64,000 bases of DNA, from positions 2,356 to 66,355 of the forward strand of contig JAZDLQ010000098.1 in assembly GCA_043801855.1 (NCBI GenBank). The letters run 5' to 3'. Below, piece by piece: positions 7,673-63,852 of the stretch. Under the pieces are notes generated by a model. The model saw only the letters and a program-made list of their open reading frames with translations, did no database searches and had not been told where the DNA came from. Source of the stretch: an archaeon. Lineage in GTDB: Archaea > Nanobdellota > Nanobdellia > Woesearchaeales > GW2011-AR15. The stretch's first letter is position 1; every line of letters starts with the position of its first letter. Made by a program: the position numbers and the translations under genes.

Positions 7673-8344
7673 ATGAGCGCGCACAATATTGATCTGATAT
7701 TTAAGATCCTTGAAAAAGAAGTAATCAATTATCATGTTCCTGTTGTTGATTTAATAAAGCTTCATTCAAATGATCCTTACAGGATTCTTGTTGCAACAAT
7801 TCTCTCTGCAAGGACAAAGGATGAAACAACTGCGCGTGCTGCAAGTAGGCTTTTTTCAAGAGCAAATAATCTTAGCAAACTTAACATGCTTAGTGAAAAA
7901 GAGATATCAAGGCTTATTTATCCTGTTGGCTTTTACAAGAATAAAGCGAAATTTTTAAAAAATCTTCCTCAGGTCATTAAACGAAAATATCATGGAAAAA
8001 TACCGGATACGATTGATAGACTGACTTCACTTCCAGGGGTTGGCAGAAAGACAGCTAATCTTGTACTCGCGCTTGCCTTTGACAAGGATGCAATATGCGT
8101 TGACACGCACGGCCATAGGATACCAAACAGGTTGGGATGGGTGAAAACTAAAACACCTTTTGAGACAGAAAAAGCGCTGACAAAACTGCTTCCAAGAAAA
8201 TACTGGATAATGTTCAACAGAATATTTGTCGCATTCGGCCAGAATACATGCAAACCGATCGGGCCCAAATGTAATGCTTGTCCAATAAACAAATATTGCA
8301 GTTATTATAAAATTAACAAAAAAGGTATAGTAAAAGATGAATAG
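7673..8344 (+). CDS. nth: Endonuclease III (HhH-GPD DNA glycosylase/AP lyase)
   Basis: 'LPGVGRKTANLVL' HhH motif, 'VDTHGHRI', and a C-terminal 4-Cys Fe-S loop 'CKPIGPKCNACPINKYC'. Confidence 0.85.
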   Translation: MSAHNIDLIFKILEKEVINYHVPVVDLIKLHSNDPYRILVATILSARTKDETTARAASRLFSRANNLSKLNMLSEKEISRLIYPVGFYKNKAKFLKNLPQVIKRKYHGKIPDTIDRLTSLPGVGRKTANLVLALAFDKDAICVDTHGHRIPNRLGWVKTKTPFETEKALTKLLPRKYWIMFNRIFVAFGQNTCKPIGPKCNACPINKYCSYYKINKKGIVKDE

Positions 8345-57255: not shown

Positions 57256-58188
57256 CTAGCTTAAACTAGCTGTAAAAAGAAGGTTACCCTGGCAAACGCC
57301 GCCAGCACTTAATGGAACTTTTAGCTTAAAAAAAGTCGTGTTCTGGCTTATAATGTTTTCATCAGTTGCCTTTGAGACATATAAATCACGCATCATAACT
57401 CCTGATCCTGTCAACGGAGTCATACCTATATTCCAGTCTTGGCCTGAGGTTATGTTATACCTTACATATGTTGCAGGAATATTTCCTTCTTCGCAAACCA
57501 TCGCAAGGTTATCTCCAAGAGCTAAACCATAGCCTGATACTGATAAGTTGACAGCAATATTTCCTGCATTTGTTATATTTGCTTCCTTGTCTGTTGATGT
57601 GTCTCCAAAAGTTAAGTCACCGAAGCGAAGCACTGTATTTACTGGAATATAAATTGCAACAAGTGGATTAATTGTTACTGCATTTGATATGTTTGTTGCA
57701 GCTGCTGCGTTAGAATCAATTGCTGTCGCATTAGCACGCCATGTTCCGTTATTTGCAAAGTAAATTACATTAAAGCCACAGGCAAACTCCATCTCTGTAT
57801 CATTCTCATCATTTGTTGTGCATGTTGTATTTGTATAGTGTGTATTTTTGTTGTCAGGCTCATTTGTCCTGTTTTGAAAATAAAAAAATGTCGCATTGAC
57901 TGACTCTGTGTTATTATCATAATCAAAAACAGTCACGTTGCAGATAAAAGACATGTTGCCATATGCTTCAAGGTTGATAGTTGACGGGCAGACAACTGAC
58001 CTCACATCAGGCGCAGCGTTTGTGATATTTACAGTCATGTTAAGGGTCTGGTTAACATCGGCTGACGCAAATGTTGGGCTGAATAATAATGACAGCCATA
58101 GCAGTGCAATGAAAACTAAAGACATCAAAAATAAGATATAGTTTTTTCCCCTCGACAAAATACTCCCCCCGATTATAGGCTGATGCAC
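57256..58188 (-). CDS. Secreted sequon-rich protein carrying the shared about 270-aa two-domain module (paralog A)
   Basis: Paralogous to 59631-60590 and to the C-terminus of the 1367-aa protein. The longest ORF starts at GTG 58188. A TTG at 58158 preceded by GGGGGGAG gives a clean signal peptide (SRGKNYILFLMSLVFIALLWLSLLFSPTFASA). Confidence 0.6.
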   Translation of the reverse strand: MHQPIIGGSILSRGKNYILFLMSLVFIALLWLSLLFSPTFASADVNQTLNMTVNITNAAPDVRSVVCPSTINLEAYGNMSFICNVTVFDYDNNTESVNATFFYFQNRTNEPDNKNTHYTNTTCTTNDENDTEMEFACGFNVIYFANNGTWRANATAIDSNAAAATNISNAVTINPLVAIYIPVNTVLRFGDLTFGDTSTDKEANITNAGNIAVNLSVSGYGLALGDNLAMVCEEGNIPATYVRYNITSGQDWNIGMTPLTGSGVMMRDLYVSKATDENIISQNTTFFKLKVPLSAGGVCQGNLLFTASLS

Positions 58189-58344: not shown

Positions 58345-59121
58345 TTATCTATTACCATTTATTCTATTAATTGTTATATCTAAGAAAGATTTTTCTTTTT
58401 CAATCCCAATATATTTTCTTCCTAGATTTATTGCTGCTACTCCAGTTGTGCCAGAGCCATTAAATATGTCCAAAACCAAGTCGCCAATATTTGTAGAAGA
58501 AGAGATTATTCGTTTCAATAGTTCTAGAGGCTTTTGTGTTGGATGCCTTCCGGTTTTTTTTTCAGAAAGCGGAGTAATTGGTATTGACCAAACGCTTCTC
58601 ATCTGTTTACCTGGATTATTTATCTTATCTTTGCTTACATCCCAATTTTTCATTAATCCATAATTGAATGTATGTCTGGAACGTTTTGATTTTTTAGCCC
58701 ACAGAACGGTCTCATGGCTGTGCGTAAAATACCTACAAGCAAGATTAGGCGGGCCGTTTGGCTTAAACCAGACAACCTCATTCATTATAAAATATCCAAG
58801 TTTTTCAAGGGCGAAGCCTACCTTGTAGATATTGTGATGTGTTCCGGATATCCATATTGTGCCATCATCATGTAAAACTTTCCTGCAAGCATCTAGCCAT
58901 CTCATCGTAAAATTGAAATCAATTTCATGGCCACTTGACTTATCCCAATTGCCCTTATTTACGCAAACCATCTTTCCTGCTTTACATGTTACTCCGCCAT
59001 TCGAAAGGAAGTACGGCGGGTCCGCGAATATCATGTTGACAGATCTTTCTTTAAGGTAAGGAAGAATGAGGAGGCAGTCTCCCTCATATAAAACAAAACT
59101 ATCATCCGAGTAATAAGTCAT
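58345..59121 (-). CDS. Beta-class N6-adenine (or N4-cytosine) DNA methyltransferase, DpnA/M2.DpnII-like
   Basis: Motif IV 'IFADPPYFLSNGG' precedes motif I 'LDIFNGSGTTGVAA' (beta order). Also 'NLACRYFTHSHETVLWA' and 'RHPTQKPLELL'. The overall pattern matches my recollection of DpnA. Confidence 0.85.
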   Translation of the reverse strand: MTYYSDDSFVLYEGDCLLILPYLKERSVNMIFADPPYFLSNGGVTCKAGKMVCVNKGNWDKSSGHEIDFNFTMRWLDACRKVLHDDGTIWISGTHHNIYKVGFALEKLGYFIMNEVVWFKPNGPPNLACRYFTHSHETVLWAKKSKRSRHTFNYGLMKNWDVSKDKINNPGKQMRSVWSIPITPLSEKKTGRHPTQKPLELLKRIISSSTNIGDLVLDIFNGSGTTGVAAINLGRKYIGIEKEKSFLDITINRINGNR

Positions 59122-59131
59122 GACCCGACAC

Positions 59132-59190
59132 GATCAGATCGATCGGATCATTGATCCTTATAAATATGATCTTGTTACTAATCAATGATC
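59132..59190. promoter_or_regulatory. Cluster of seven GATC sites in 59 bp directly upstream of the methyltransferase start codon
   Basis: GATC at 59132, 59137, 59141, 59146, 59153, 59168 and 59187 (first bases). A TATA-like TTATAAATAT (59158-59167) is embedded in the cluster. Confidence 0.6.
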
Positions 59191-59208: not shown

Positions 59209-59601
59209 TCACCCCATGAATTGAATAATTCCTTTATCACGCAATATTTGGAGCTGCTGCCTGATTTTCTCTTCAATGTGGCTATTATTTGGATGTAATA
59301 CTGCAAAATCTTTTTTATAATGATATAATTCTTTCAACTCAAATTCTTTTTTATTAAGTTTTTCAATACAATTTAAAACATCTGTAATCCAGCTTACCTG
59401 ATTGTTTTTTATATCTTTTAAGAAGGAAAATCTTTTTACTTTTTCATAGACTTTTTTCCTTTCTACAATTATCCCTTTTTCTATTATCGGAATTTTTGCG
59501 TCTGTCGGAATTGTCTGCATTAAAAAATAACAGCCAACCCACCCATGCCTTCTTGCAGTGTTTGATAACTGATTTCTTTTTTCAACAACTTTCTTTTTCA
59601 A
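59209..59601 (-). pseudogene. DpnI-family restriction enzyme remnant: C-terminal half only (winged-helix methyl-GATC reader), catalytic N-terminus missing
   Basis: 'TARRHGWVGC', 'VLNCIEKLNKKEFELKELY' and 'NSHIEEKIRQQLQILRDKGIIQF' match my memory of the DpnI C-terminal portion. The ORF opens with TTG right after an in-frame TAA, and the first ATG is codon 28. Confidence 0.65.
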
Positions 59602-59630: not shown

Positions 59631-60590
59631 TTAATAAAGGCTTGCTGTAAACATCACTTTTCCCTGGCAGATGCCGCCAACTCCAGTTGGAATCTTAAGC
59701 TTCCAGTATGTCGTATTCATGCTTGGGCTATTTTCATTTGTTGTCTTATTTATATTCCAGTTTCGGATTAGAGTATTTGTTGAGTTTAACCCTAACATTA
59801 CTGTTTCGTAGTTTTGGTTTGGGTTGATATGGTATTTCTGGTATCCGATAGGAATTGAGCCATAGCTGCATACCATGCTTAAGTTATCTCCTCTTGTTGT
59901 ACCCCAACCCTGGATACTTACATTAACCCTGATGTTCCCAGCGTTTGTTACATTTGCAAGCTTATCTGTTGAGATATCGTTGTAGTTCATCTCACCGTAA
60001 TTAAGCACAGTATTATCTGGTATGTAAAGCGCGATAAGTGGATTGATCCTTAATGAGCTAGACCTGTTATCTCCTGTTGCAGTCCCTACATCTTCTGCTG
60101 TTACATTGCTATACCATGTTCCGTTATTGGTAAAATACGCAACATTAAATCCGCATGTAAAATTCATGTAGAAATCCTGCTGCGTATCATTAGAGCACGT
60201 AACATTAGTATAATGGGTGTTCTTATCATTCGGCTGATCTGTCCTATTCAAATAATAATAAAATGTCGCATTTACTTTAGCTGTATTATTATCATAGTCA
60301 TATACTGTGACATTGCATAAAACAGTGGTGTTTCCATAAGCATCAAGGTCAACTGTAGAGGGGCATACAACTGATCTCACTTCTGGAGCTGAATTTGTAA
60401 CATTCACCGTAGTATTTAGTGTTTGATTCACTGCAGCACCGTTTGCAGCAATCGATATTTCAGGCATAAATAGTATATACACCCATATTACAAATACAAA
60501 CCCCAGCATCACTATAGACAATAAGGTTTTCCAGTCTTTTTTCCTTTTCATTGATTTCCCCTCCATTTTTTCTATTTTGATTTTTTTCAT
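59631..60590 (-). CDS. Secreted sequon-rich protein carrying the shared two-domain module (paralog B)
   Basis: Aligns by eye along its full length with 57256-58188 ('NQTLN.TVN.TN.AP.VRSVVCPST..L.AYGN', 'DKNTHYTN.TC', 'CQG...FTASL'). The probable start is ATG 60551, preceded by GGAGGGG. Confidence 0.6.
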   Translation of the reverse strand: MKKIKIEKMEGKSMKRKKDWKTLLSIVMLGFVFVIWVYILFMPEISIAANGAAVNQTLNTTVNVTNSAPEVRSVVCPSTVDLDAYGNTTVLCNVTVYDYDNNTAKVNATFYYYLNRTDQPNDKNTHYTNVTCSNDTQQDFYMNFTCGFNVAYFTNNGTWYSNVTAEDVGTATGDNRSSSLRINPLIALYIPDNTVLNYGEMNYNDISTDKLANVTNAGNIRVNVSIQGWGTTRGDNLSMVCSYGSIPIGYQKYHINPNQNYETVMLGLNSTNTLIRNWNINKTTNENSPSMNTTYWKLKIPTGVGGICQGKVMFTASLY

Positions 60591-63500: not shown

Positions 63501-63655
63501 AGCGAAAACGTTGTGTATTGTGGATAGCCTCCGCATAGGTCAACACTTACTGGAGACATAGATGTTACCTGAACTGAGCCTGCTATTCCTGATTGCATGA
63601 GAGTAAAAACTATCAGAAGCAATATTACTGCCTTGATAATTTTTTCAGCTCTCAT
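60599..63655 (-). CDS. Type I membrane surface protein (1018 aa): signal peptide, beta-sandwich domains, FN3 domain, coiled coil, single TM, cytoplasmic DUF5752-like tail
   Basis: Signal 'AVILLLIVFTLMQSGIAGS'. FN3 'PPTDVRSIDAQADSDGNIQIKWYY...YYYKVAAVDKAGNIGPLS'. TM 'LFMLAGVGLLVSLLLYYLVAI'. Tail '...FYNHVNNQKNDFANWIASVF'. Confidence 0.7.
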   Translation of the reverse strand: MRAEKIIKAVILLLIVFTLMQSGIAGSVQVTSMSPVSVDLCGGYPQYTTFSLTGIRNLESVPLTSVAATLYVTGNSGLSFITPQSINIGDIAVNSVSGTVPTWILQCNNPHDGVYYAYVNFTSANGYKATTLDNNAYSTVIVHGQALLLVNATLIEGARINSSGSESVPVLLDSTPTIKVTTNKDSVCKGSLDANEAYDAMDFIFYGAATTHEYTFLTPISQGAHTVFVQCKDSQENLLPNAIELKFIIDTTIPEIQVTSSLTTTTDYTLLSITTAKKAECRYGTDNDKFSDLDEFENSEETSFSTVVEGLDLGENEYYILCKDSNGNFAEREIIIKYEKAPAAKITLSDISPVKAGIIEIRLDTSKTLRSIPKLSYSFTDSNTFTREISLIKASGYYSGYMVIEKSDLPRVGVFSFSGTDLTGIVGTEITEGKNFLVDTIPPTDVRSIDAQADSDGNIQIKWYYDGEEEENFNVYRSASSGVDYIHYFKKTADDEFTDEEVIAGTTYYYKVAAVDKAGNIGPLSREVSKLAAKSGAATAALANVDVPKYDTLIDFNKTLKSIEKLEIDINWAENALNEQKGKESAIDELALVKKVLDAKGELSKLKAQFKDINPLTYTNADLLQHISRAKSIVNNLQKTTPQKLDVVKKTELVQPISNADVDEAVAEVTRDTNYTNSQLKYYKEKIYAFSGNIKITSEIKTLSIVYLFGNTEGRVLVTKKVTYESPEELTNVKLLEIIPKTVASDLGTVDIKTPDYVIIKQDPIVGWNLVKLSYDQFEIKYFILTEDTSESAKNTKTVVLLRPESVIKPSSNLVTGFVSQISRISPYGLMQTLFMLAGVGLLVSLLLYYLVAIQEVKFGKVGEIMARFIPNKKGEQEAVPVGQALSNEQKTFVQEKLVPIQPPEIKIEVHENKQTPSVAGNIAAAQSLNHIVLDYNLITSPSQYFFLSNGDVIRSIEEFFSIVPELDEATFYNHVNNQKNDFANWIASVFHMPGLGEAIQMAKTKEELVTIISSIKK

Positions 63656-63852
63656 TTTTTCATCTTGTCAAGTATATTTTTGTCTTTTTCAATAGCTTCA
63701 GATATAGCTTTTTCAAAAAATTCGTTAAGTGTAATGTTTTTCAGAACAGCGATCACTTTGGCTTTTAAGTGTATATCCTCGTCGAGGACAATGTTAACTC
63801 TTTTTTGTTTTGCCATTGATAATTCGCTTTTAGCGTCTATTGTTTTAGCCAA
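63652..63852 (-). CDS. Ribbon-helix-helix (CopG/Arc-like) DNA-binding protein
   Basis: 'KRVNIVLDEDIHLKAKVIAVLKNITLNEFFEKAISEAIEKD' fits a beta-strand/helix/helix pattern. Its TGA overlaps the ATG of the 1018-aa gene (ATGA at 63652-63655). Confidence 0.6.
   Translation of the reverse strand: MAKTIDAKSELSMAKQKRVNIVLDEDIHLKAKVIAVLKNITLNEFFEKAISEAIEKDKNILDKMKK

Follow-up and report, generated by a model that had tools for sequence, protein, structure and literature searches.

A conserved array of GATC sites in the promoter region of a DpnA-type methyltransferase gene of a woesearchaeal archaeon

The locus and its GATC sites

In an archaeon of the Woesearchaeales (assembly GCA_043801855.1), a gene for a DNA methyltransferase (MTase) and a truncated gene of the DpnI family lie one after the other on the minus strand, and the short gap between them is packed with GATC sites. 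We analysed this GATC array within a stretch of 64,000 nucleotides (contig JAZDLQ010000098.1, positions 2,356 to 66,355), which is called the window below. The initial annotation of the window had interpreted the array as an operator that senses the methylation state and controls the MTase gene and possibly the surface genes downstream, with the DpnI-like protein as a possible sensor. Related loci are designated by L numbers. In two of them (L164 and L161) the sites are placed as in the window (type A), and in four others (L001, L002, L162 and L163) they are placed differently (type B). The locus contains the following features.

58345–59121, minus strand: beta-class N6-adenine DNA methyltransferase of the DpnA/M.LlaDCHIB type, 258 aa, apparently intact (PF01555, E = 1.1e-61)
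59122–59144, minus strand: promoter-proximal block GATCGATCnGATCGTGTCGGGTC (MTase strand), abutting the ATG and near-invariant in the window, L164 and L161
59132–59190: GATC array of seven sites, which start at −14, −19, −23, −28, −35, −50 and −69 from the MTase ATG
59146–59156: GATC-N3-GATC dyad, adjoining the TATA box on its downstream side (MTase strand)
59158–59164, minus strand: archaeal TATA box TTTATAA, −43 to −37 from the ATG, the same in the window, L164 and L161
59168–59171: GATC at −50, overlapping the expected position of the B recognition element (BRE, recognized by transcription factor B, TFB) directly upstream of the TATA box
59187–59190: distal GATC at −69, 18 bp past the stop of the DpnI fragment; at −69 in type A and at −68 in type B
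59209–59601, minus strand: N-terminally truncated DpnI-family gene of 130 codons with a TTG start, corresponding to about residues 121–250 of DpnI

The seven GATC sites start at 59132, 59137, 59141, 59146, 59153, 59168 and 59187, and the first five span no more than 25 bp. A re-count of the window reproduced exactly the positions and the packing given in the initial annotation. The same is true of the 87-bp intergenic gap, which extends from the stop of the DpnI-like open reading frame (ORF) at 59209 to the MTase ATG at 59121, and of the TATA-like box, which is real and reads TTATAAA on the plus strand (59158–59164) and TTTATAA on the MTase strand, 37–43 nt upstream of the ATG. A palindrome at 59132–59149 makes the proximal GATC sites partly self-complementary. 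A perfect 10-nt inverted repeat (59146–59155 and 59181–59190, GATCATTGAT / ATCAATGATC) lies on either side of the TATA box. We considered this repeat as a conserved element and rejected it, since L164 and L161 keep the GATC alone.

The window has a G+C content of 34–35% and contains 74 GATC in total. Dinucleotide-preserving shuffles give an expectation of 181.8 ± 13.5, and a maximal-order Markov model gives 181. The ratio of observed to expected GATC (0.41) is the lowest among all sixteen 4-nt palindromes in the window, the second lowest being that of CGCG (0.50), and GANTC shows no depletion. The scarcity of GATC across the window points to a lineage long exposed to GATC-directed restriction. 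When 74 sites were placed randomly 20,000 times, a 59-bp segment contained at most four of them, and the Poisson probability of at least seven GATC in one such segment is about 9e-13. The second-densest spot of the window has three sites in about 85 bp (7691–7775), and no second cluster like the array was found anywhere in the 64 kb. The cluster is non-random and far above chance.

The sites occupy most of the putative core promoter. Archaeal promoters initiate about 25 bp downstream of the centre of the TATA box. Because TTTATAA lies at −43 to −37 in an archaeal promoter, transcription in type A is predicted to start at about −17 to −12 from the ATG, and the block at 59122–59144 is expected from this distance to hold the transcription start and a short leader. 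The GATC at −35 abuts the TATA box on its downstream side, and those at −28, −23, −19 and −14 fill the stretch to the expected start. On the upstream side, the block GTAACAAGATCAT(a/c)TTTATAA, which includes the −50 GATC, is kept in all three type-A loci. A conserved CGTGTCGGGTC stands just before the ATG. Apart from the TATA box and CGTGTCGGGTC, the core promoter is essentially GATC. Thus, the probable target of the MTase lies on both sides of a conserved TATA box and reaches across the predicted transcription start to the start codon.

The order of the MTase motifs is that of the beta class, DPPY (residues 34–37) preceding FNGSGT (220–225), and in an alignment of 25 family members the protein retains all family-invariant residues. 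Comparison by tblastn of plasmids and by BLASTP gave 52% identity with M.LlaDCHIB of pSRQ700 over 98% of the length (266 bits), against 44% identity with the catalytic domain of CcrM (204 bits, BLASTP). The identity with the M2 of a staphylococcal plasmid is 55%. The M2 gene of pSRQ700 is flanked, in one operon, by those of a Dam-like D12 methylase and a DpnII-family nuclease. PMC4190342, citing Moineau 1995, describes LlaDCHI as a GATC system related to DpnII. We compared the window with 160 loci from genomes and metagenomes that encode MTase relatives, and with the contigs of the closest database proteins. The family is large (55–79% identity) and occurs in DPANN, Asgard and methanogenic archaea and in several bacterial phyla. 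A Dam-like D12 MTase lies no more than 3 kb from the family member in 57 of the 160 loci, and a DpnII-family nuclease in 31. These comparisons support a DpnA-type rather than a CcrM-type enzyme, in agreement with the initial annotation. Because the MTase is closest to M.LlaDCHIB and its family stands beside Dam-like MTases and DpnII-family nucleases, GATC is its well-supported probable target on grounds of homology and gene neighbourhood. The depletion of GATC in the window and the array in the gene's own promoter would lend indirect support to GATC methylation. We also considered a CcrM-type specificity for GANTC and rejected it: GANTC is undepleted, and the 4-mers enriched upstream of the gene are GATC and overlapping words. 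A viral or plasmid origin was rejected as well, with no exact match to the type-A motif in IMG/VR and all viral MTase relatives at 58% identity or less. An exact-sequence look-up of both proteins of the locus in the contig index returned no record.

Conservation of the array among relatives

We scanned the 150 bp upstream of the MTase gene systematically in 158 loci, most of them from the more distant family. It turned out that 121 loci have no GATC there, 24 have one and 10 have two. The only genuine cases with more than two are L001 and L002, both of which belong to the sub-clade of the window's MTase. A cluster of three to seven GATC stands just upstream of the ATG, within 70 bp of it and at fixed offsets, in all loci (n = 7) with an MTase at least 73% identical to that of the window. 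The cluster consists of seven sites in the window and in L164, at the same seven positions; of six in L161, where the −35 site is lost; of five in L163, four of them no more than 100 bp from the ATG; of four in L001; and of three in each of L002 and L162. The type-A offsets are −69, −50, −35, −28, −23, −19 and −14. In type B they are −68, −61 and −48, with −19 also present in two of the four loci, and the three core sites stand upstream of the TATA-like element of the MTase gene. In L001 and L002, the core sites lie between the MTase gene and a divergently transcribed gene. The GATC-N3-GATC dyad, which occurs once in the 64-kb window, is found upstream of the MTase gene in six of the seven loci.

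The seven 100-bp upstream regions together contain 34 GATC when 2.9 are expected (P ~8e-25). GATC is the most enriched 4-mer in these regions, and the runners-up are overlapping words. Within type A, the 75 bp upstream of the gene are 83–85% identical between lineages, and the third codon positions of the MTase genes are 45–50% identical, i.e., saturated. The non-coding upstream stretch is conserved as strongly as the first and second codon positions. Since the upstream 75 bp are this similar against saturated third positions, the array is under purifying selection. The bases flanking the sites vary while the GATCs are fixed: G..C in the window, T..A in L164, L001 and L002, and T..G in L162 and L163. 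Judging from these alignments, the array is a selected feature of the MTase sub-clade, neither a chance cluster nor a junction artefact.

A neighbouring MTase clade (L081, L082, L003, L083, L167 and L168), 65–71% identical, has no upstream GATC. Its members share a conserved block, AATAGTTTAAATTACCACATAATTTATTTTAA, at a distance of about 70 bp from the MTase start on the upstream side. This block may represent a different kind of regulatory element.

Neighbouring genes and the DpnI fragment

The genes around the array differ from locus to locus. The upstream neighbour is the truncated DpnI gene in the window, a DpnI-like gene running off the contig end in L164, a nuclease-like HARE-HTH/NmeDI_C gene that has replaced the greater part of a Dam-like gene in L161, and a divergent gene X followed by an intact Dam-like gene in L001 and L002. 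The downstream genes are unrelated among the loci. In L002, L162, L163 and L164, the next gene lies on the opposite strand (convergent), and in L001 it encodes an unrelated small membrane protein. Because the array is kept with the MTase whatever the upstream and downstream genes, it belongs to the MTase gene. Thus, the operator proposed initially is upheld in part: the strictly kept number and position of the GATCs in seven of seven sub-clade loci back a regulatory function connected with the MTase gene, and the changing downstream genes do not bear out control of the surface genes.

The 130-aa ORF aligns to residues 124–250 of DpnI (E = 3.6e-27). The winged helix DpnI_C (PF17726, E = 6e-27) is present in it, as is the final third of the profile of the catalytic domain, and the PD-(D/E)XK catalytic core is missing. 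D53, E64 and K66, the metal-binding and catalytic residues of DpnI (PMC4117772), fall in the missing part. Between the stop of the surface-protein gene upstream and the TTG start of the ORF there are just 29 bp, so the N-terminal half was deleted and not frameshifted. In an AlphaFold (AF2) model, the predicted local distance difference test (pLDDT) is 90–94 for the winged helix and 70–83 for the leftover catalytic piece, and DpnI is the sole significant fold match of the model in the PDB (E ≤ 0.001). By these comparisons, the ORF is a fragment and not a nuclease. This is what the initial annotation had recognized as a DpnI remnant with a C-terminal winged helix. The closest homologue, that of L164, is 53% identical and reaches further N-terminally, and a search of the homologues gave no other fragment with a like truncation.

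Four loci (the window, L164, L014 and L172) have a DpnI-family gene directly upstream of a member of the MTase family, both genes pointing the same way. The state of the two genes in the informative loci, and in one locus with the DpnI-like gene only, is as follows.

L014: DpnI-like gene full length; MTase full length
Window: catalytic half of the DpnI-like gene lost; MTase intact
L172: DpnI-like gene intact, 79% identical to that of L014; MTase reduced to the C-terminal 113 codons, with the DPPY half gone
L171: DpnI-like gene present, a close relative of that of L014; no adjacent MTase

In L014 (2082–3789, JACRKF010000035.1), the two seemingly intact genes are in tandem, 88 bp apart, and the MTase is 63% identical to that of the window. 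L172 (4001–5415, CAYTHK010000033.1) is the mirror image of the window. Its MTase remnant is 86% identical to the MTase of L014, and a promoter relic, GATCATCTTTATATAAT, follows the DpnI gene and lies between it and the remnant. Helbrecht et al. (2024) found that PD-(D/E)XK-wH nucleases seldom neighbour methylases, and that the N6-methyladenine MTases which did adjoin one were inactivated by frameshifts. In their interpretation, genomic conflict is avoided in this way (PMC11037411). The window may represent the other outcome of such a conflict, which indirectly supports the assignment of its MTase to GATC. The DpnI fragment is best read as the scar of a probable conflict between a nuclease directed at N6-methylated GATC (Gm6ATC) and a GATC methylase, and not as a sensor.

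Several candidates were rejected in the course of this comparison. The DpnI of L014 could be taken for a dead nuclease, as it has QLK in place of E64-L-K. In the DPANN homologues of DpnI (P0134–P0253), the E64 position is occupied by Q in 112 of 120 (motif QxK), so this is a trait of the subfamily. These QxK homologues usually have an acidic residue two positions earlier and represent an uncharacterised active-site variant. Stand-alone DpnI_C proteins were considered as a family of readers. P0006 proved to be a frameshifted DpnI on a low-coverage contig, and P0012 has a cytidylate kinase gene as its neighbour, on a contig of 1.5 kb where no MTase was called.

Some further features of the neighbourhood were observed. 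In L161 (781–1767, Ga0366832_1124758), the Dam-like gene is reduced to about 100 codons by a 243-aa HARE-HTH/NmeDI_C nuclease-like gene, which stands directly upstream of the type-A array and an intact MTase, a further sign of rapid turnover at this locus. Protein X (~170–217 aa) is encoded in L001 (2222–2875, minus strand) and L002 (2241–2870, minus strand), and also in L037, L049, L051, L055, L062, L072 and L087. It recurs beside the pair of Dam-like and beta-class MTases in archaea and Gastranaerophilales and has no sequence match in Pfam, NCBIfam, PHROG or the PDB. We rejected the idea that X is simply the restriction enzyme, since some loci have X plus a DpnII-family nuclease. Protein X may be an uncharacterised accessory of DpnII-like systems. 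By tblastn, the 64-kb window contains no Dam-like MTase, no DpnII-family nuclease and no protein X. The MTase and the DpnI fragment lie between two paralogous secreted proteins of about 310 aa (57256–58188 and 59631–60590, 52% identical), within a co-directional minus-strand cluster (40841–63655) whose NxS/T-rich products are very large (1367, 4008 and 1018 aa). It looks as if the pair had been inserted into a group of surface-protein genes. No small ORF for a helix-turn-helix controller was found beside the MTase in the window, L001, L002, L161 or L164. A 66-aa ribbon-helix-helix-like ORF (63652–63852, minus strand) at the start of the 1018-aa surface-protein gene has weak Pfam matches to ParG and HicB, both just under the gathering scores. 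It is the nearest ORF of this kind, lies 4 kb from the MTase and is unrelated to it, and the locus does not have the arrangement of a restriction–modification (R-M) system regulated by a C protein. Scanning the window for Rfam families and tRNA genes gave no match.

Possible function of the array and comparison with known systems

We propose, with a probability of roughly 0.55, that the array is a conserved cis-regulatory element of the MTase promoter and leader, which gives autoregulation dependent on methylation or on occupancy of the sites. The array would be the MTase's own probable recognition sequence, placed inside the core promoter and the short leader of its gene. Methylation of the promoter, or occupancy of the sites by the MTase, could alter the assembly of TATA-binding protein (TBP), TFB and RNA polymerase (RNAP), and the level of GATC methylation in the cell would then feed back on MTase synthesis. 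Both the effect on transcription and its sign are suggested by analogy. Negative feedback seems the most economical: the gene would be on when the promoter is unmethylated or hemimethylated and would be turned down when it is fully methylated. The adjacent 130-aa ORF would be the remnant of a Gm6ATC-dependent DpnI-family nuclease and would be dispensable for the function of the array, as an active GATC methylase and such a nuclease presumably cannot coexist. Expression of some R-M systems, e.g., CfrBI and LlaDII, depends on methylation of cognate sites in the promoter of the M gene (PMC3874152; bioRxiv 10.64898/2025.12.04.692298).

Several points weigh against this proposal. The array occurs in only seven loci, all of them metagenomic, four of them on contigs shorter than 2 kb. 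Types A and B differ in the placement of the sites relative to the TATA box, and one mechanism may not fit both. The best solved-structure match of the MTase is CcrM, which recognizes GANTC; this is an effect of which proteins were crystallised and not of true kinship. The margin between 52% and 44% identity is modest, and homology and gene neighbourhood are what make GATC the probable target. An effect of N6-methyladenine (m6A) on the binding of archaeal TBP, TFB or RNAP is assumed here, and no demonstration of it was found in searchable papers.

The array could instead be the operator of a separate sequence-specific transcription factor whose half-sites merely contain GATC (e.g., TGATCA-N-TGATCA), methylation being irrelevant. 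The dyad is palindromic and present in six of the seven loci, in type B it is placed between two divergently transcribed genes, as is typical of operators, and the uncharacterised conserved gene X accompanies several loci of the family. We nevertheless consider this unlikely. The flanks of the GATCs are unconserved and not consistently palindromic, and four to five packed, overlapping GATCs (GATCGATCnGATC) are unlike the operator of a dimer. No candidate regulator gene is common to the seven loci, and none adjoins the array in the window. It would also have to be a coincidence that the operator is built only from the tetranucleotide targeted by the adjacent enzyme family. A control at the RNA level is much less probable still: a GAUC-rich leader would form a hairpin or pair with GAUCA near the 3' end of 16S rRNA and so control translation. 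The partial self-complementarity of the proximal sites, their probable position at or just past the transcription start, and the predicted fold of the leader (−18 kcal/mol) agree with this. The fold, however, is no better than that of shuffled sequences (z = −1.24; 22 of 200 shuffles were as good), and at least two type-A sites (−50 and −69) and all three core type-B sites are upstream of the TATA box, so they would not be transcribed with the MTase. Finally, we give very little credence to the cluster as a non-functional by-product, e.g., a repeat that expanded locally or the scar of a recombination where two gene cassettes meet. There is gene turnover at the locus, with DpnI truncated in the window, Dam in L161 and the MTase in L172. 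However, the site positions are identical across lineages with saturated synonymous sites, and the array is tied to the MTase start and not to any upstream junction.

The role of sensor that the initial annotation had offered to the DpnI fragment also seems improbable. The winged helix would be the m6A reader of the methylated array and would regulate the MTase and perhaps the surface genes, forming a writer–reader pair. The 130-codon frame is unbroken, has a conserved KIRQQLQILRD helix in addition to the strong DpnI_C match, and encodes a confidently modelled winged helix. The winged helix of DpnI alone is reported to bind Gm6ATC (PMC4117772), and a DpnI-like gene is directly upstream of the MTase family in four loci. 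Against this, the array is kept just as well in at least three relatives (L001, L002 and L161) that have no adjacent DpnI-like gene, no second example truncated in a like manner is known among the homologues, the nearest relative (53%) being longer N-terminally, and the start codon is TTG. The intact DpnI of L172, next to an MTase without its DPPY half, suggests mutual incompatibility and not partnership, in line with the conflict avoidance described by Helbrecht et al., and a recent deletion would equally leave an intact-looking frame. One more general idea is that the tandem of a DpnI-family protein and a GATC MTase in DPANN is a functional epigenetic module and not a conflict. The GATC-saturated promoter would be a switch that is either read by the nuclease-less winged helix, as in the window, or silences the methylase beside an active Gm6ATC nuclease, perhaps in L014 and L164, where de-repression would lead to self-cleavage resembling abortive infection. 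This too strikes us as far-fetched.

To our knowledge, there is hardly any work on how R-M genes are regulated in archaea or on DNA methylation as a signal for transcription there, and we know of essentially nothing for DPANN. In searchable papers, whose coverage of the literature is incomplete, we found no description of the regulation of R-M genes in DPANN archaea, nor of an array this dense in an archaeal TATA/BRE promoter. The initial annotation knew of no such arrangement. Within those papers, this stands for the density of the array in an archaeal promoter; cognate sites in the promoter of an MTase gene as such are established for CfrBI and LlaDII (PMC3874152). A core promoter whose non-TATA positions are filled by one methylation target, kept under selection, is a compact and testable model. 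It could reveal how m6A acts on TBP, TFB and RNA polymerase, which in archaea correspond to the eukaryotic machinery. The series of loci may also be a natural record of the incompatibility of a methyl-directed nuclease with the matching methylase, from both intact, through a truncated nuclease, to a truncated methylase. If the reader role of the fragment were true after all, a regulator that reads m6A would have arisen from a nuclease, and prokaryotes would have an epigenetic circuit of a new kind.

Clustered methylation targets that make transcription methylation-dependent are found in the Dam switches of pap and agn43 and in the GANTC sites of the ccrM promoter. Those switches use dedicated regulators (Lrp, OxyR, CtrA/GcrA) and control surface structures or the cell cycle. 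In contrast, no such regulator was identified here, the promoter is archaeal, and a link to surface genes is unsupported. The DpnII, LlaDCHI and MboI systems, with a Dam-like M1 and a beta-class DpnA-type M2, resemble the locus in the MTase itself, given its 52% identity with M.LlaDCHIB and the Dam-like (57 of 160) and DpnII-family (31 of 160) neighbours of its relatives. They differ in that the window has neither the Dam-like gene nor the DpnII-family nuclease, and, in pSRQ700 and in staphylococci, the 150 bp preceding the operon and the 150 bp preceding the M2 gene are free of GATC. The pneumococcal dpnA is under the control of a competence promoter (PMC3812788). As in the DpnI/Dam-replacing family and in the mutual exclusivity of DpnI and DpnII in S. 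pneumoniae, a nuclease meets a GATC methylase here and one partner is disabled. Unlike in the cases of Helbrecht et al. (2024; PMC11037411), the casualty in the window is the nuclease and not the MTase, and L014 keeps both apparently intact.

The proposed regulation comes closest to that of CfrBI and LlaDII, in which the promoter of the MTase gene carries the enzyme's recognition sequence and the level of modification can feed back. In the type-B loci L001 and L002 the sites also lie between divergent genes, as in CfrBI. There are differences: the promoter of CfrBI is a bacterial sigma-70 promoter with just one site, whereas three to seven sites saturate an archaeal TATA/BRE promoter here; and, unlike in CfrBI and LlaDII, the MTase of the window is without an intact nuclease partner, and its regulation is proposed from the sequence. 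The regulatory principle is thus already known in bacteria, and on our best reading the array would extend that of CfrBI and LlaDII to an archaeal promoter.

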